In this document: positions 32,462 through 53,264 of the stretch, in pieces | How the letters are laid out: each line of letters opens with the position of its first letter | Numbering within the stretch: position 1 is the stretch's first letter | Origin: Candidatus Thorarchaeota archaeon | GTDB taxonomy: Archaea; Asgardarchaeota; Thorarchaeia; Thorarchaeales; Thorarchaeaceae | Direction of reading: 5' to 3' | DNA length: 64,000 nucleotides | Assembly (NCBI GenBank): GCA_029855935.1 | Contig: JAGSHN010000025.1 | Location: 147,135 to 211,134 of the forward strand | Program-made: the position numbers and the translations under genes | The notes under the pieces: model-generated | The model's database searches: none | The model's input: the letters and a program-made list of their open reading frames with translations, nothing else | What the model was told of the DNA's origin: nothing

Positions 32462-33067
32462 TTAACCCTTGCGCTCTCGATACTCCCTTCTGGCCATATC
32501 GATCCACGCGGGCGCACCCTTCAACATAGATGCCTCCTCGGATGTGAGTTCCTCATATTTGACCAGCGTCATGTCGTCTGGAAGGATGCCACTCACTCCA
32601 GCGGGGTCCTCAATAACTAGGGTGAACTCAAGCTGACCATCGATTGCCCGGTCAATCATAGCGAGAACCTCCGCCCCCCGTGCCTTCTGCTCAGGCCGCT
32701 GTGCGAAGTTGATTGCGGTCTGAACAACTGGTCGCACTCGTTGCAACACGCCCTCGACATTGGAGATGAACGAGTCGGCCGCGGGGCCCGGCTCGACGTC
32801 GATACCAAACTCCAGCAACCTGATAGTCCCGGAGCTAGACCGTATCACGCGTACTCGGAGCATCGATGGATCTTTGACGCGCAGCGTCCACCGGCTAGGC
32901 TGATGCTGCTCTGTTGAGAAGATGTCATTGTGCCGGAAGCTACAGGAGGGGCACCGCATCGTGAACATTGCTATCTCATTGAAGAAGGGGACAGTGTAGA
33001 GAATCGATTTCACCTCAAGGTCGGCCTTGCCACATATCGGGCATCGTATCTTCATCTCATCACTCAC
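32462..33067 (-). CDS. ZPR1 zinc-finger domain protein
   Basis: CPICG...PFF...CPSC, RSSSG, PGP, SNVEG and DPAG motifs. Confidence 0.92.
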   Translation of the reverse strand: MSDEMKIRCPICGKADLEVKSILYTVPFFNEIAMFTMRCPSCSFRHNDIFSTEQHQPSRWTLRVKDPSMLRVRVIRSSSGTIRLLEFGIDVEPGPAADSFISNVEGVLQRVRPVVQTAINFAQRPEQKARGAEVLAMIDRAIDGQLEFTLVIEDPAGVSGILPDDMTLVKYEELTSEEASMLKGAPAWIDMARREYRERKG

Positions 33068-33246
33068 GTCATACTCCTCCAGTCACGGTTCATGCTCTCG
33101 ACGCGCCCGACGGGACCTCTGCGTCATCGTTCTCTCGCTGATATGGCTCAATGTATCACATCCAAGCAGTACATCCGTGTAACACTCAAAAGGAATTCGA
33201 CAGAGGATACTTGTGGTCAATAGCTGCGGCACTGGAGGCCCGCCTG

Positions 33247-34458
33247 TTGGACGCAAAGAGCTTGTACATCATAAAGAGAGAGAGTGGCGTGTGCCTTTAT
33301 CACCGCGACTTCAAGGAGCCTATGTTCGATCCACACCTCATATCCTCATTCATCGCTGCGATGACCTCTTTCTTCACGGAGTCAAACTACTCCGTGATGT
33401 CGACAGCACGTGCGTTCGAAGGGGCCGACTACAAGATCGTTCTAGAGTTTGGAGAGTGGACCGTCGGAGCGCTGGTTGTGAACAAGGACACTGAGGCGCT
33501 CCGCGAGAAACTCAGGGCAATCATCCAGGAGTTTGAGAAGCAGTTCTCCATTCTGCGCTACATTGACCTTGACCTTGCAGTCTACACCAGGTTTGAGAAG
33601 ACTGTGATGAGCGAGTTCATCTTCAACGAGATCACGCCAGAGACAATCATCCGCAAGAAGTTGAACTGGGACCTTATCACGGACAATCCCGACGTGAGGT
33701 CTTTCCTGCAGCTCCTGCCAGAGAAATGCTCCGTGAGGGACGCGGCTGAGTTTCTTGAGATGCCCGTGGAGGTTGCAATGAAGCTGACGGCTGAGGCCCT
33801 GTGGGAGAGAGCTATCACAGTCTCAGAGCCAGTCCGACCCGACGACATATTCTCAGCGACAGTGCGCGGCCTCATAGGCGGGCAGACGGATGACGTTTCT
33901 CCGGACACCGCCCGTGCCATCAGGGAGCTCGATGGTGAGACACCTCTGGCCATCGCGGCAGAGAGGGTGAAGACTTCTGATCTTCAGAGGTTCCTCGAGG
34001 AGGTCGCAATGCTCGCACGCCGGAGAGCCATTGAGAGAGTCTCGCCATCGCAGACAGCCATGATACTGTGGACCTCTCTCATTCAGCAGCTGCTCAACAT
34101 CGGTGCCAAGATTCTTGGTACTGAGAGAACAGCCCGCGTGTTCACCGAGGCGCGTCGCGAACTGCTGGGCGTCTATCCGTGGCTGGCCTTTGTAGACCTT
34201 GAGAGAGAAGTCGATGTCGACATTCGAAGTGGCCTGATTGCCTCTGCTGTGAAGGGAGAGATCTCACCAGTGATAGTCAATGACGGGTTCAGGGCATTGA
34301 CGCAGTTCTTCACAAAGCGGCTGAGTAGGTATGTGAATATGAAACGGGTCAATGAGGCTATTCTCACCGTGAAGGACACAATGGAGAAGGAATTTCCGAC
34401 ACGGTGCTACGACATCGAGTGGGAACTCCTCAAGGTGAGCGAGGAGTCCGTCATCTAA
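33247..34458 (+). CDS. Longin-like domain protein with C-terminal winged-helix repeats
   Basis: LYIIKRESGVCLY...DPHLISSFIAAM, a longin-type N-terminus homologous to the cytoplasmic domain of 47958..53264. TTG start with a GGAGG RBS. Confidence 0.65.
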   Translation: MDAKSLYIIKRESGVCLYHRDFKEPMFDPHLISSFIAAMTSFFTESNYSVMSTARAFEGADYKIVLEFGEWTVGALVVNKDTEALREKLRAIIQEFEKQFSILRYIDLDLAVYTRFEKTVMSEFIFNEITPETIIRKKLNWDLITDNPDVRSFLQLLPEKCSVRDAAEFLEMPVEVAMKLTAEALWERAITVSEPVRPDDIFSATVRGLIGGQTDDVSPDTARAIRELDGETPLAIAAERVKTSDLQRFLEEVAMLARRRAIERVSPSQTAMILWTSLIQQLLNIGAKILGTERTARVFTEARRELLGVYPWLAFVDLEREVDVDIRSGLIASAVKGEISPVIVNDGFRALTQFFTKRLSRYVNMKRVNEAILTVKDTMEKEFPTRCYDIEWELLKVSEESVI

Positions 34459-34579
34459 ATCGTAAGTGTCATATCCCACAATGCGCTTGAGACGTCTGTC
34501 TCTTCACACCTAGGGGGCCCAGAGCCTGACTGAGAGAAGAACTCCACAAGTCATCGCCTACGTCGCAATTGCCATCATC

Positions 34580-35290
34580 GTGCCAGTTGTGGGCGGGCTC
34601 CTCCAAATGACCGGGCTCACCAGCGTGCTCCTCCTCTTGATAATCGTTCTTGGCCCGGCCATCGCCACCATAACAGGGGCTCTCGGAATAAGGAGATATG
34701 CACGAGGAGGGTTCGTCGGACACGATCAGTTCACCGCAATGAATCTACTCGTTGCACTGGGCGTCGGTGTACTGGTACTCCCTGAGATCCTTGCCTCAAT
34801 CATCACTATCGTGCCCTCAGCGACAAGTGACGTGATGGTTGTCATGTTGCTTCAGTTCCCGGGCGTTATCCTGTGGACACTTGGAACGATGAGCTACTAC
34901 AGTGCTGCCATTAGCGCCCTGAAACGTCGTAGCGTCCGTGGGGACATAGCGACGATGATTGTTGTGGCAGCGATCGTGACTGTGACTCCTACTTGGCTAT
35001 CTGTCGACTCTCCTGCGTCAAGAGATGTCATTCGAGCACTGGCCTACTTTCCCACAACAACAGCACTCGGTGCCACAGTCATTGCACTGGCTGCTCTTGC
35101 ATGGTCATTCAGAGGGGGGAGGATTGGAATCTTCATCATTGTCCTCTTGGCCGGCATGATAGTCTATCTGGTCCAGAGCCTGATGTGGGGGGCGCTCGGC
35201 ATACTCCCAACAGACATCATCACACGTCTTCTCTCAGTCGAGGCATACGTTCTGCTGGGGCTAACACAGAGCATCGAGGAGACTCTCTGA
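34580..35290 (+). CDS. Multi-pass membrane protein of unknown function
   Basis: About 7 hydrophobic segments; fills the gap between neighbouring genes. Confidence 0.6.
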   Translation: MPVVGGLLQMTGLTSVLLLLIIVLGPAIATITGALGIRRYARGGFVGHDQFTAMNLLVALGVGVLVLPEILASIITIVPSATSDVMVVMLLQFPGVILWTLGTMSYYSAAISALKRRSVRGDIATMIVVAAIVTVTPTWLSVDSPASRDVIRALAYFPTTTALGATVIALAALAWSFRGGRIGIFIIVLLAGMIVYLVQSLMWGALGILPTDIITRLLSVEAYVLLGLTQSIEETL

Positions 35291-47957: not shown

Positions 47958-50900
47958 ATGAAACGCGCCCTCATCGTAGCCACGGTCCTCGTCTTGGTCA
48001 TGGTACTGGCACCCGTCCAAGAGAGTCCAGTCAGAGTGCTCCCAAGTAAGACCATTCCGGCCATAGTACCACAAGGCCGAGGAATGGAAAAGGCAGTCGG
48101 CTCCGCTGGCGGCCAAGGACAGCCTACTCAGGCAATCGAGTATTTTGCAACACAGATGACCTCTCAGAGAGTGAGCATCATGAACTCCTACTCGAATACC
48201 TCATACCACAGCGGGGTGATTGACCTGTCCGGACATCAGATCTCCGGCTGGACACTGTACAGGGTCACAATGGATGTTTCCAACATCACCGCCGCACCAG
48301 AGAGGGAGTCCGTGACAGACCCCGACCCCGCACAGAACACCGTCGGCAATGTGTTCAGGATCTACTACGACTCCGACACTGCGCTGACGACCGACGCACT
48401 GGCACAGGGCTTCTACTCCGACCAGCCCTTCGATGGCGCGCTCGTCAACTACTCCATCCGGTACTGGACGCTCATCTACAACCCTGCGACCTATGGGACA
48501 GCGTACTTTGTGGTGCGCTCCGACTACTCGGACAGCACGAGCAACGTCACCAACCCCGTTGCGGTGCAGTATGTCACGACCAACACCACTGCGAACATCA
48601 CCTGCTCCCTGAACCTCCTCAATGCCTCCACCACGTACTACGCCCTCATAGATGGCGAGTCTCTGCACTCCGCCTTTGGAGTATTCCCTGACATCATGTG
48701 GCACTATCAGTCCAAGGCGACGGACACCCTCGACAGCAGGAAGCACCTCCGCGGAGGTGGCTGGCCTCAGATCAACTCATATGACGCGTACCTGCTGTAC
48801 ACGTTCATCCCGTGGAACAGGACGACAGGCACGCCCCTTGACCTGACGGGTCGTCCCGACCAAGTGGACCTGCGGGCAAACGGCACTCTGCTGAGCGCGC
48901 CCGAGGCGGGCGCGTCGTCAACCCCTGACTGGGAGTTCACCTCTCCTACGGGAGAGAACATCACGTTCATCCGGTTCACGAGTAACCAGTCGGTCTACGT
49001 CTTTCACGACCTGACGCTGTGGTATCGCAGGATCACCAATTCGGACACGATATGGAGCGTGAGTAGTCCAGGGGGCAGCGTACAATGGAATGCAACAATG
49101 GCCGTGAGCTATCCCTCTGTACCTAGCAAAACGGGGCAATATGTCAACCTCTCCGTTCCTGCAGATTGGGATGCAACAGGTCTGTATGAGCAGTCCGCCC
49201 CAGCAACTAATCACACGCAGTTCGATCAATACGGGACGACGGTGGTTGCAAGTTCAATGTCGGATGGCACCTGGACTCTTGTTTCGTCGGCACCGAACTA
49301 TGTGGCGTCAATCGACTCGGTTTCGGAGGCTGTGATAACAAGTAATGTCACAATCAGGAACTACATTCAAGACTCCTCGTCCGTGAATGCCTCCACAGGA
49401 AGCACTAACCTGACGGTATCAAAGACGGGTGCCACGGTGTGGGCGCCTCAGAATGAAACAGTGATCGATGGTGTCACCACCTACGTGTGGGTCATCAGCA
49501 ACTGGACGACGGAAGGAGGCACATACCTTGTTGAGGTCTACTGGGCCAATGGCACAGAGGCTGGATTCCGTTCTGTGGAGATACACGTATACATCCCCAC
49601 GTCACTGTATGCCACTACACCCACCATATCTGCCTACGTGGACAGCTCTTTTGACATAGAGGTGTTCTTCAACGACACCTTCACTCCGGAGGGGTTGAAC
49701 GGCACACGAGCAACGGTTCAGTACTCCTTTGACGGCGGGTCGAATACAACGATGGGTGACCTTGGCAATGGCACGTGGACCGCCACTGTGTCGACTGTAG
49801 GAATGAGTCCAGGGGACTATGAGGTCACAGTCTTTGGGACTGGTAGCTACCTTGAGAATCATAGCATAGTCATAGATGTCACACTCGTCTATTCCACGGC
49901 ACCACTGGAGATCACGTGGACCAACGGAGACAACATCACCTACTACCAGACTACGACTCTTCAAGTCAACTACACTCTCCAAAATGGTACGGCGGTCAGT
50001 GGAGCGTGGGTAAATGTCACGATTGGAGGAACTACGTGGAACCTCACGTACAACGGCCTCCTTGGACTCTACGAGATTCAGCTGAATGGTAGCGACCCGG
50101 TTCCAGGAATCGGCACATACAGCGTCAGCGTCTCAGCCTGGAGAGTAGACTACGAGTCCCAGACAAATTCCACACTGACGTTCACCATCAGACCCGAGCC
50201 CACGAACATCACAGTGTCGTGGACATCCGCAACCTTCGACTGGACAGACTCAAGAACCCTAGTTGTGAACTACACGGACTCGTATGGGACGCCAATCTCT
50301 GGTGCAACACAGCTTCAGGTCCTTGTCAATGGCACGGAATACTCACTTCAGCCCTCAGGAAATGTCTATCAGATAGTGTTCAACAACTCCTTCGATCTTG
50401 GTCATCATATTGTATCGGTCAACATCAGCAAGTATGGGTATGTTCCCGGCACGCAGGAGGGCATTACCTTTGACATCACAGAGACCGTCACAACCCTCAC
50501 GGTGACGTGGTTCCCAGCCGATGTGGTCGTCCCGTATACGAGTGACCTCGTCTTGACTGTCGACTACTACTATGCTGGCGGGGATGTGCCCGCCACCGCT
50601 ACTGTGAACGTCAGTATTGACGGCAACAGGTATAACCTCACATATGACGGAGCAGTCTGGAGCGTCGCGATACCAGCAAGCAACCTCGGGTTCGGGCAGT
50701 TCAATGCCACCGTGTTTGCGTGGCTGTACGGCTACGAGGCAAGAACAAATGTGACCTACAATGTGACCGTCGTAGTCGCGACCCTCACCATCTCCACAAC
50801 CTGGACATCACTGGACCTGTACTACACACACCAAGGACCACTCAATGTGACCGTCACCGACCAACTCGGCTCACCGGTTTTCGGGGCCGAGGTGAACGCC

Positions 50901-53264
50901 TCATATCGCGGGACCAACTACACTCTTACCTCCGTCGACGTCGGAGTATATTCGATCACATTCAACGGCACCGATGGGCTCGGGACGTTCCAGATACAGA
51001 TCACCGTGCGAAGATATGGCGTGTTCAACACGACAAGAGACCTGACACTGAACATAGTCGAGACCCCAACGACTATGTCCATTCAAGAGATCCAGTACCT
51101 CTACAATGGGACCGCTGGCAACACCCTCTATCACGATGGAAGCGTTGAGATTCGCGTGTCCGTGCAGGATGTTGACGGACTGGGCGTCGATGGCCTTGTC
51201 GTCAACGTCACAATTGGCGGAGATACTTGGCCGCTCGCACCCCAGGGCGGAGGGTTGTATACAATCACTTTCCAAGGAGATGCTCTTGGCGTCGGCACCC
51301 ATGACTTCACGGTGGCGGCAGACACCTATGGCTACGAGGGAATTTCACAGTCTGACCAGATAGTGGTTGCAGCAGTTCCAACCACCGTGCTGGTGACAAG
51401 TGACGTACCAAGCGTGATAGTGATCAATGCTACTGCCGTCTTCACAATACGGTACGTGGACGCGCACACTCTGGCTCCTATTGCTCCTCAGTCTGTGACT
51501 GTGGACTGGGTGGGAATGCACGACTATTCTGTGACGGGCGACGGGTACGAGTTCAACATCTCGACCCTGATGGTACCGCTGGGGGACAACATTCTCACTA
51601 TCACCTTTGCGCTTGAGAACTACACTAATGCTCAGTACATTCGTGTCGTGAACGTACGTGCTGCATTTACGCTGTTCACGGCCGCTGACAGTCATACCGT
51701 ACCGCAGAACGAGACTGAGGTCTTCACCACAACATACTACGACATCGACCATCAGCGCCCGATTCGTTCTGCGAACGTCACTCTCGCAATCGAGGGTACT
51801 GTATATCCCATGGTCCACGTTGGAGAGGGAACGTATCGTGCTGAGGTATGGGTCAGGCTTGATCCTGGGACGTACACCATCACATTCCACGCCGAGGCGA
51901 CGGGTTGTGCTGCAAACTCCACCACGGTCACACTCACCGTGACCGCAAAGCGTGCTGTGGTGTTGGAGGTACAGGTACCGGAGAACGCTGTTCAGGGCTC
52001 TTCAATCACTGTCAGCGCGACATTGACCGATGAAGATGGCAATCCCATTGTGGGTGCTACCATCATCTTCGAGGTGACTGCTCGTTTCGACAACGGTAGC
52101 GAGATAGCTCAGGTACTGAGCGCCACGACCAATCCCGACGGCTATGCTAGTCAGGCCTACCAGGTGCCGCAGGCCGCCACCGAGCTGGTAGTAGAGGCGA
52201 CATTCAGAGGAACGTATCTCTATTGGAGCGCCTCCGTTCATTCACAGGTCATTCAAGTACATCCACCGGGGCTCAGTGAGAACCTAGTACGTACAGTGCA
52301 ATTTGGGTTACCATTCATCCTCCTTGTGGGAGCCGCCTACCTAGTCTACACCAAGAAGCACAGGCCGAGCAGGGAGCGCAAAGAGAAACGACTGCGGGAA
52401 CAGTACGAGAGATTCAAGGAACTATGCACCCTGAGACACTTTATGGCCGTCTACCGAGATAGGGGTACCTGCGTGTTCTACTACCCGTTCACGGAGGAGA
52501 GGATTCAGCCTGACCTGATCAGTGGGTTCATCACAGCGATAACAACAGTCTACGGTGAGATCAAGGGCGATGGCGTACAGGGCACGCTCGAGGAGATTCA
52601 GTACAAGGGACTGATACTCAACGCGTACAGTGGGAAGTATATCCTTGGAGTAATCATAATGGAGGGAGAGATGACCGGGTTCCTCAGGGACAGACTAAGA
52701 TTCTTTGTGGACATATTCGAGTCGCAGTACGAGGACATCCTGAAGGACTGGAGCGGCTGTGTTGACGACTTTGACGCCGAGTGGGTTGTTTCCACGCTTC
52801 ACAACGCGATCAACTACGACTGGGCCTTGCCTCATACTCTCAACAGGGCGGCCAAGACGAAGGGCGTGGAGAGGAAGGTTGTCGGGATCATAGCAGAACG
52901 ACTGAACGAGAGAGGAGAGTTCCACATCAAGGACATCCTGCCCGATGTCGCACAGAAACTGAAGGTGTCGGAGGAGGAGGCCCTCAACATTCTTCTCAAG
53001 ATGCACGATGAGGGCATCATTCAACCCATCAGTATCAGTACAATCGTCACTCGCCAAGGCCTCGGTATCCCAGGAGAGGGCGAAGGGGAGGCGCTGAAGA
53101 TAGTTCCCCCCGAGAGCGAGAACACTGAGCAGGAAGAGGAGCACAGGACGACGGAGGAGGACACCGAGAGCGAGCCTCGTGAAGATGATGCCGAGCAGTT
53201 CATTGAAGAGGTGGAACGCCTCCTGAGAGAGAAGTCCGACAATGACGAACAGCAGACTGACTGA
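47958..53264 (+). CDS. Giant single-pass surface glycoprotein: Ig-like repeats outside, longin-like plus winged-helix domain inside
   Basis: Signal peptide; many NxS/T sequons; roughly 100-aa beta-rich repeats (D..G.PI.GA.V...G.Y.I.....G.Y...V.A...GY); TM helix FGLPFILLVGAAYLVY; basic stop-transfer; then GTCVFY...PDLISGFITAI. Confidence 0.85.
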   Translation: MKRALIVATVLVLVMVLAPVQESPVRVLPSKTIPAIVPQGRGMEKAVGSAGGQGQPTQAIEYFATQMTSQRVSIMNSYSNTSYHSGVIDLSGHQISGWTLYRVTMDVSNITAAPERESVTDPDPAQNTVGNVFRIYYDSDTALTTDALAQGFYSDQPFDGALVNYSIRYWTLIYNPATYGTAYFVVRSDYSDSTSNVTNPVAVQYVTTNTTANITCSLNLLNASTTYYALIDGESLHSAFGVFPDIMWHYQSKATDTLDSRKHLRGGGWPQINSYDAYLLYTFIPWNRTTGTPLDLTGRPDQVDLRANGTLLSAPEAGASSTPDWEFTSPTGENITFIRFTSNQSVYVFHDLTLWYRRITNSDTIWSVSSPGGSVQWNATMAVSYPSVPSKTGQYVNLSVPADWDATGLYEQSAPATNHTQFDQYGTTVVASSMSDGTWTLVSSAPNYVASIDSVSEAVITSNVTIRNYIQDSSSVNASTGSTNLTVSKTGATVWAPQNETVIDGVTTYVWVISNWTTEGGTYLVEVYWANGTEAGFRSVEIHVYIPTSLYATTPTISAYVDSSFDIEVFFNDTFTPEGLNGTRATVQYSFDGGSNTTMGDLGNGTWTATVSTVGMSPGDYEVTVFGTGSYLENHSIVIDVTLVYSTAPLEITWTNGDNITYYQTTTLQVNYTLQNGTAVSGAWVNVTIGGTTWNLTYNGLLGLYEIQLNGSDPVPGIGTYSVSVSAWRVDYESQTNSTLTFTIRPEPTNITVSWTSATFDWTDSRTLVVNYTDSYGTPISGATQLQVLVNGTEYSLQPSGNVYQIVFNNSFDLGHHIVSVNISKYGYVPGTQEGITFDITETVTTLTVTWFPADVVVPYTSDLVLTVDYYYAGGDVPATATVNVSIDGNRYNLTYDGAVWSVAIPASNLGFGQFNATVFAWLYGYEARTNVTYNVTVVVATLTISTTWTSLDLYYTHQGPLNVTVTDQLGSPVFGAEVNASYRGTNYTLTSVDVGVYSITFNGTDGLGTFQIQITVRRYGVFNTTRDLTLNIVETPTTMSIQEIQYLYNGTAGNTLYHDGSVEIRVSVQDVDGLGVDGLVVNVTIGGDTWPLAPQGGGLYTITFQGDALGVGTHDFTVAADTYGYEGISQSDQIVVAAVPTTVLVTSDVPSVIVINATAVFTIRYVDAHTLAPIAPQSVTVDWVGMHDYSVTGDGYEFNISTLMVPLGDNILTITFALENYTNAQYIRVVNVRAAFTLFTAADSHTVPQNETEVFTTTYYDIDHQRPIRSANVTLAIEGTVYPMVHVGEGTYRAEVWVRLDPGTYTITFHAEATGCAANSTTVTLTVTAKRAVVLEVQVPENAVQGSSITVSATLTDEDGNPIVGATIIFEVTARFDNGSEIAQVLSATTNPDGYASQAYQVPQAATELVVEATFRGTYLYWSASVHSQVIQVHPPGLSENLVRTVQFGLPFILLVGAAYLVYTKKHRPSRERKEKRLREQYERFKELCTLRHFMAVYRDRGTCVFYYPFTEERIQPDLISGFITAITTVYGEIKGDGVQGTLEEIQYKGLILNAYSGKYILGVIIMEGEMTGFLRDRLRFFVDIFESQYEDILKDWSGCVDDFDAEWVVSTLHNAINYDWALPHTLNRAAKTKGVERKVVGIIAERLNERGEFHIKDILPDVAQKLKVSEEEALNILLKMHDEGIIQPISISTIVTRQGLGIPGEGEGEALKIVPPESENTEQEEEHRTTEEDTESEPREDDAEQFIEEVERLLREKSDNDEQQTD

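Follow-up and report, generated by a model that had tools for sequence, protein, structure and literature searches.

Predicted NPRL2/NPRL3-like architecture of a Thorarchaeota longin and winged-helix protein encoded beside a polytopic membrane protein

We found that a Candidatus Thorarchaeota genome encodes a 403-aa protein, here called clade A, whose fold and architecture resemble those of NPRL2 and NPRL3 (Npr2 and Npr3; GATOR1/SEACIT, a GAP for RagA/Gtr1). As in those proteins, a longin domain is followed by two similarly arranged winged helices. The likeness holds in the structural models, and clade A is very probably a true NPRL2/3-like longin/winged-helix protein. We propose, with a probability of about 0.55, that it is a cytosolic adaptor, one of the Asgard "NPRL2-like" proteins, acting as a docking or regulatory platform that would be anchored by a co-encoded membrane protein. 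The gene and its neighbors lie in the window, the whole 64,000-nucleotide stretch of DNA that was analyzed, as follows.

33247 to 34458, plus strand: gene for the longin and tandem winged-helix protein (clade A), from the ORF list and translation, with the stop codon at 34456 to 34458.
34580 to 35290, plus strand: gene for a membrane protein of no known family with 6 to 8 transmembrane (TM) segments, from translation and hydropathy.
32462 to 33067, minus strand: ZPR1-type zinc-finger gene, divergent and upstream, from the Pfam matches jr-ZPR1 and Zn_ribbon_ZPR1.

The longest open frame in the ORF list runs from 33151 to 34458 on the plus strand. A TTG start codon at 33247 gives the 403-aa product, which is the same as the called protein P0002, and its N terminus (MDAKSLYII) aligned with the starts of the homologues (n = 32). 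We rejected the longer start at ATG 33151 because the 32 residues that it adds are not conserved. A word-indexed search returned 142 homologues of about 397 aa and 48 to 66% identity, nearly all of them labeled Candidatus Thorarchaeota. This number is far above chance, so the open reading frame at 33247 to 34458 that a sequence-only reading had singled out is genuine and conserved. That reading had also called the protein soluble, which agrees with our finding that it has no hydrophobic segment over the Kyte-Doolittle threshold, and both of the strings it had quoted are present, one (FLQLLPEKCSV...ERAITV) at residues 152 to 191 and the other (AIRELDGETPLAIAA) at residues 223 to 237. The stretch was matched in one sequencing run, from a hydrothermal-vent metagenome from which the DNA may have come, and there were no RNA runs among the matches.

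We modeled the whole protein with AlphaFold using an alignment of 33 homologues (mean pLDDT, 75.8). The model has four parts.

33247 to 33606, plus strand: longin domain, residues 1 to 120, from model secondary structure, VIA-align, and motif counts.
33619 to 33861, plus strand: linker strand and first winged helix, residues 125 to 205, from the C-terminal model and structure matches.
33862 to 34044, plus strand: second winged helix with LDGETPL, residues 206 to 266, from the C-terminal model and structure matches.
34045 to 34455, plus strand: C-terminal helical module with one beta-hairpin, residues 267 to 403, from the high-confidence C-terminal model.

The first part of the model shows strands at residues 3 to 10 and 15 to 19, a helix at 29 to 48, strands at 55 to 58, 63 to 68, and 72 to 78, and a helix at 83 to 105. 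It does not have the N-terminal helix expected of a roadblock domain. Model confidence in the longin part of the whole-protein model is low (pLDDT, 44 to 70), and with this low-confidence part VIA-align matched residues 1 to 105 to MglB, Asgard Roadblock3, VAMP7, Sec22, and Rag C-terminal domains at Z scores of 9.4 to 8.0. The order of strands and helices and the matches to longin and roadblock domains bear out the longin fold that had been proposed for the N terminus. Since the top longin and roadblock scores are tied, the longin domain alone does not reveal which longin family it represents.

To take the longin domain out of the comparison with NPRL2 and NPRL3, we folded residues 125 to 403 alone on a 47-sequence alignment that included distant relatives (alignment A3), and we obtained a model with a pLDDT of 95.1 and a pTM of 0.87. 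Within the second winged helix, D229 and G230 are invariant in alignment A1. Alignment A2 takes in the paralogous clade as well; there, G230 is conserved and D229 nearly invariant. Unlike NPRL2 and NPRL3, clade A carries an extra, lineage-specific helical tail of 135 residues. In the structure scan of PDB chains, these last 135 residues (267 to 403) had no clear NPRL2 counterpart and no clear match elsewhere; the weak partial matches included H-NOX N-terminal helices (Z, 6.2; 78 residues).

We compared the whole model with 350,542 PDB chains using Foldseek and found that ranks 1 to 14 were all NPRL2, NPRL3, or yeast Npr2 from GATOR1 and SEA complex structures, with E values of 1e-6 to 2e-3 and 335 to 493 aligned columns. 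Chain identities were assigned from a PDB profile search, chain lengths, and residue ranges. The same matches had whole-chain TM-scores of 0.22 to 0.26 and rmsd values of 18 to 21 Å, which shows that the domains are oriented differently in the model and in NPRL2/3. When residues 125 to 403 were searched alone, ranks 1 to 13 were again NPRL2, NPRL3, and Npr2 (E, 5e-4 to 7e-2). A shape search of the ESM Atlas gave NPRL2 and NPRL3 clusters as the sole eukaryotic rows, beside hypothetical clusters from Thorarchaeota and Promethearchaeota. We also checked two other longin systems. Mon1-Ccz1 and CPLANE (Fuz/Intu), which the sequence-only reading had named as alternatives, appeared in Foldseek at ranks 16 and 35, below NPRL2/3. 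These GEF complexes resemble clade A in having longin domains, which serve them as GTPase platforms and might do so in clade A; they contain three longin/roadblock-type domains without tandem winged helices, and only their N-terminal domain aligns well.

A VIA-align scan of 48,161 representative chains, which is independent of Foldseek, reached Z scores of 8 or more for Npr2 and NPRL2 only. Npr2 matched at a Z score of 8.3 over 142 residues (rmsd, 4.0; chain positions 235 to 487) and NPRL2 at a Z score of 8.1 over 140 residues (chain positions 165 to 328), and both winged helices were covered in each case. Every remaining match covered a single winged helix of 50 to 70 residues with a Z score of 7.6 or less; for the first winged helix, such single matches reached 7.5 at most. 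Realigning the Foldseek hits gave Z scores of 8.0 to 8.5 for NPRL2 and 7.0 to 7.8 for NPRL3 (chain positions 252 to 408). Overall, the tandem winged helices match the arrangement in NPRL2 165 to 362 and NPRL3 252 to 408 at Z scores of 7.0 to 8.5 over about 140 residues (rmsd, 4 to 5 Å). This is a match of moderate strength, and VIA-align Z scores near 8 can occur for models without true relatives. The likeness nevertheless carries weight because one family alone tops three independent lists and because the placement of the two domains is matched. Thus, the earlier proposal that the C-terminal domains are related to NPRL winged helices fits their best PDB matches in both Foldseek and VIA-align. 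Judged by the models, clade A is the closest structural counterpart of NPRL2 and NPRL3 found in the Thorarchaeota genome analyzed.

This kinship is not visible at the sequence level. Searches of the 403-aa sequence against Pfam, NCBIfam, and PDB sequences found nothing useful, with no Pfam match for the protein at an E value of ≤10 or for 47 relatives at an E value of ≤1. The Pfam NPR2 (PF06218) and NPR3 (PF03666) profiles found nothing in the whole genome at an E value of ≤10, and HTH_NPRL3 matched only another open reading frame and not the clade A gene. A profile of the wider family reached NPRL3 in the PDB only at an E value of 2, in the first winged helix. The top PDB hit of the profile search was a designed helical repeat protein, which we rejected as a trivial helix-turn-helix match. 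A language-model search of the ESM Atlas with the clade A protein found only archaeal hypothetical winged-helix clusters and no NPR2.

We next turn to the gene neighborhood. We determined the distribution of the clade A gene and its partners in 151 Asgard genomes, our own genome included, of which 27 belong to one GTDB family (f1). Full-length clade A proteins were found in 25 of the 27 f1 genomes and nowhere else in the sample. The profile of the downstream membrane family occurs in single copy in exactly these 25 genomes and in 0 of the 126 others. Comparison of coordinates showed that the membrane gene lies directly downstream of the clade A gene, on the same strand, in 24 of the 25; in the exception (G131) it lies 9 kb away, also on the same strand. 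The gap between the two genes is usually 70 to 150 nt, and in one genome they overlap by 4 nt. The membrane proteins of the relatives are homologous, fast-evolving, and only 17 to 29% identical. No Pfam family matched the membrane protein of the window. In a language-model search of the ESM Atlas, its neighbors were unnamed clusters, and the sensor families MASE3, MASE4, and HisKA_7TM scored 0.81 to 0.82, below the level at which a match would exceed a lead.

The start of the membrane gene was also noted. Its frame is open from 34514, and the first ATG, GTG, or TTG codon is at 34580; the match to the membrane-family profile begins at 34550, 30 nt before this first canonical start. The residues encoded upstream of 34580 (VIAYVAIAII) resemble part of the first membrane helix in the homologues. 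Translation may begin at an unusual codon, or part of the first helix may have been lost.

On the other side of the clade A gene, ZPR1 is found at the matching upstream position in 5 of 5 other contigs, giving six loci with the window. The ZPR1, clade A, and membrane genes are kept together in these five contigs of relatives (48 to 55% identity). In eukaryotes, ZPR1 acts together with the translation GTPase eEF1A; its pairing here with the clade A gene may be plain inherited gene order. An H+-pyrophosphatase gene lies on the far side of ZPR1. Past the membrane gene come an ABC transporter pair and a PadR gene on the other strand. Among the five contigs, variation is seen in the ABC pair and in the inserts beside the pyrophosphatase gene. 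One relative has a HepT/MNT-type toxin-antitoxin pair inserted between the pyrophosphatase and ZPR1 genes (L014:3270-4044), which indicates that insertions are tolerated here while the gene trio persists. The two f1 genomes without clade A (G075 and G093) also have no ZPR1, so this region is probably unassembled there; for the same reason, we rejected the joint absence of the clade A and membrane genes from these genomes as evidence of linkage.

The one-to-one presence of the two genes, taken with their variable surroundings, argues for a functional pair. All genomes with the pair belong to one GTDB family, and thus some of the linkage could be due to a gene order that they inherited. We put the chance that the clade A protein works with the downstream membrane protein at about even.

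A related concern extends to the protein itself. Common longin and winged-helix modules could have been assembled convergently, with no special relation to GATOR1 and with the gene pair reflecting inherited order only. This would account for the missing sequence signal, the moderate Z scores, and the low whole-chain TM-scores, and both the extensive domain shuffling described among Asgard proteins in a preprint (Liu et al., bioRxiv 10.1101/2020.10.19.343400) and the persistence of the H+-pyrophosphatase and ZPR1 genes nearby, which points to general conservation of gene order in the family, are consistent with it. Against it, NPRL2, NPRL3, and Npr2 alone top both Foldseek lists, and the two winged helices match in how they are placed toward each other as well as in the fold of each unit. 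The ABC pair and the pyrophosphatase-ZPR1 inserts also vary while the membrane gene stays adjacent in 24 of 25 genomes. We regard convergence as unlikely, though it is the likeliest of the alternatives.

Like NPRL2 and NPRL3, clade A has a paralogue within one genome. An exhaustive search identified a second clade (clade B) of 400- to 440-aa proteins that are 23 to 31% identical to clade A and share its layout. The member in our genome is on another contig.

G000:C24:47639-48832 (locus L002:1435-2697), outside the window: full-length paralogue P0272, with longin domain, two winged helices, and tail.

P0272 has 421 aa and is 28% identical to the clade A protein (E, 2e-35). Its neighbors, SfsA upstream and a PAS-domain protein or EutA-like gene downstream, gave no functional lead. 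Clade B was detected in 24 of the 27 f1 genomes; 22 of the 27 have both clades, 3 have A without detectable B, and 2 have B only. Outside f1, another family has one full-length related form, and three genomes have shorter ones of about 290 aa. We predicted the complex of clade A and its paralogue with alignments A1 and A4 and obtained a score of 0.06 against a mark of 0.32, a result that speaks neither for nor against binding.

Other open reading frames also match the family. Outside the window, two adjacent frames of about 290 aa at G000:C15:26911-28440 and a 417-aa frame at G000:C24:17696-18835 are hit by the family profile with E values of 6e-13 to 8e-9. By their sequences, the Thorarchaeota genome carries several longin/winged-helix families. 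A 459-aa frame at G000:C6:67400-68700, again outside the window, has a weak longin match to the clade A family (E, 1e-3) and is the only HTH_NPRL3 match in the genome (E, 0.013; 17 bits; below the cutoff); it may be a further NPRL-like protein. Within the window, the tail of a 1,768-aa surface protein (positions 52416 to 53000 of the frame 47958 to 53264) matches family profile positions 14 to 207 (E, 2.7e-12). This cytoplasmic-tail match covers the longin domain and first winged helix and suggests that the module is also used as a receptor tail.

The catalytic arginine finger of NPRL2 is Arg78 and that of Npr2 is Arg84, both on a longin loop, and NPRL2 Arg78 sits in the turn that leads into the last longin strand. 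Turning to clade A, we found an invariant G14 in the β1-β2 loop (47/47 sequences in the alignment), an invariant R55 within ARAFEG, and a conserved E67-x-G69-[ED]-W71 turn. The residue after G14 is V or I in clade A, whose loop reads G-[VI]-C-[ML]-Y. In clade B the loop reads G-x-A-P, with a proline three residues after the glycine in 23 of 32 sequences; P0272 has G-L-A-P-Y there and W-R-T in place of the A-R-A of clade A. The β4-β5 turn of clade A (E-x-G-[ED]-W) has no arginine, and R55, at the start of β3, is the only invariant arginine near the face of that turn. Conservation leaves Arg55 as the sole candidate for a catalytic arginine. All 15 clade A sequences have Arg at position 55; of the 32 clade B sequences, 24 have Lys and 3 have Arg there, an asymmetry that is suggestive. 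GAP-type longins are defined by a Gly-Pro that ends the β1-β2 loop, adjoining the arginine finger, and some Asgard longins have been argued to share GAP motifs (Traffic 2025, PMC12290439). Counting motifs in the alignment, we found that this GP motif is absent from clade A. Thus, clade A resembles the FLCN/SMCR8-type GAP longins and their Asgard look-alikes in its β1-β2 loop glycine and conserved arginine; it differs from FLCN/SMCR8-type longins in having no adjacent Gly-Pro and in having winged helices, not a DENN module, after the longin domain.

These features bear on whether clade A (with Arg55) and its paralogue (mostly with Lys) form a heterodimer that is a functional analogue of NPRL2-NPRL3, the paired longins acting as a GAP for a Rag- or Arf-like GTPase. 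The shared architecture and best structural match, the two full-length paralogues in one genome, and the Arg/Lys difference, which recalls a catalytic and a noncatalytic partner, are consistent with this idea, as are the Asgard longins with proposed GAP motifs and the several small GTPases in the genome, which match the Gtr1_RagA profile weakly (21 to 29 bits). In contrast, the GP motif is lacking, Arg55 lies at the start of β3 and not in the turn adjoining the β1-β2 loop, and the two clades do not always occur together, although the two genomes with B only look like assembly gaps. The clade A and B genes are also unlinked to each other and to the small-GTPase genes, and we found no GTPase gene beside either locus. 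The IML1 profile (Iml1/DEPDC5) found nothing in this 97%-complete genome. We consider such a heterodimeric analogue doubtful, and it is equally doubtful that the clade A protein is a GAP at all. Of the earlier description of the protein as a GATOR1-type regulator, then, the longin/winged-helix architecture stands, and the functional label reaches too far: matches to the Pfam profiles, the GP motif, Iml1/DEPDC5, and a linked GTPase are all absent.

A one-component transcription factor, in which a longin/GAF-like sensor controls DNA binding by the winged helices and regulates the neighboring genes, is very unlikely: a sensor domain with a winged helix is the commonest layout of prokaryotic regulators, taken singly, the winged helices resemble DNA binders of the MarR, ArsR, and TFE types (Z, 5 to 6), some members of the nearest language-model clusters hold HTH_47 or TrmB domains, and the gene is divergent from ZPR1, but these generic matches are weak, the tandem unit matches protein-binding winged helices (NPRL2/3 and FAM91A1) and not DNA binders, and the pI values, our proxy for a basic DNA-recognition surface, are acidic (4.5 for the first winged helix, 5.3 for the second, and 5.05 for the whole protein). 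D plus E exceeds K plus R in both winged helices, and from this acidity we would expect protein-binding rather than DNA-binding units.

Liu et al. (bioRxiv 10.1101/2020.10.19.343400, Fig. 5c) described an "NPRL2-like" family in most Thorarchaeota MAGs and a few Loki genomes. Like clades A and B, that family is described as having a longin domain and an NPRL2-type C-terminal domain, and its distribution fits; we matched the two by description. The core NPRL2-like idea is therefore not new. What is added here is the one-to-one, mostly adjacent gene for a 6- to 8-TM protein and the full-length paralogue elsewhere in the genome; the membrane-gene partner and the split into two clades go beyond the part of the preprint text available to us.

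Longin and roadblock domains usually dimerize. In the adaptor that we propose, the longin domain of clade A would dimerize with itself or with the 28%-identical paralogue, and the dimer would form a platform on which a small GTPase or other NTPase docks. By analogy with other longin proteins, clade A probably docks an NTPase; that this client is a small GTPase is a tentative suggestion, at somewhat less than even odds. The winged helices and tail would hold clade A on the co-encoded membrane protein, and together the two would make up a sensing or signaling unit anchored in the membrane. Clade A differs from NPRL2 and NPRL3 in that its conserved partner gene encodes a polytopic membrane protein. 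Since clade A lacks the GP motif that marks GAP-type longins, we favor a docking or regulatory platform over a proven GAP.

Among the candidate precursors of the eukaryotic systems for GTPase regulation at membranes, Asgard longin proteins come first. At its most ambitious, the adaptor reading would make the longin/winged-helix protein and its 6- to 8-TM partner a membrane-anchored sensor-plus-platform that, with the unlinked paralogue, controls a small GTPase at the archaeal cell membrane, a simple relative of GATOR1 that predates lysosomes; we regard this full picture as improbable. Because the resemblance itself has been published and the function is inferred, the finding is a useful lead and not a surprise. 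The named membrane partner and the paralogue turn a vague resemblance to NPRL2/3 into a lead that can be tested at the bench.
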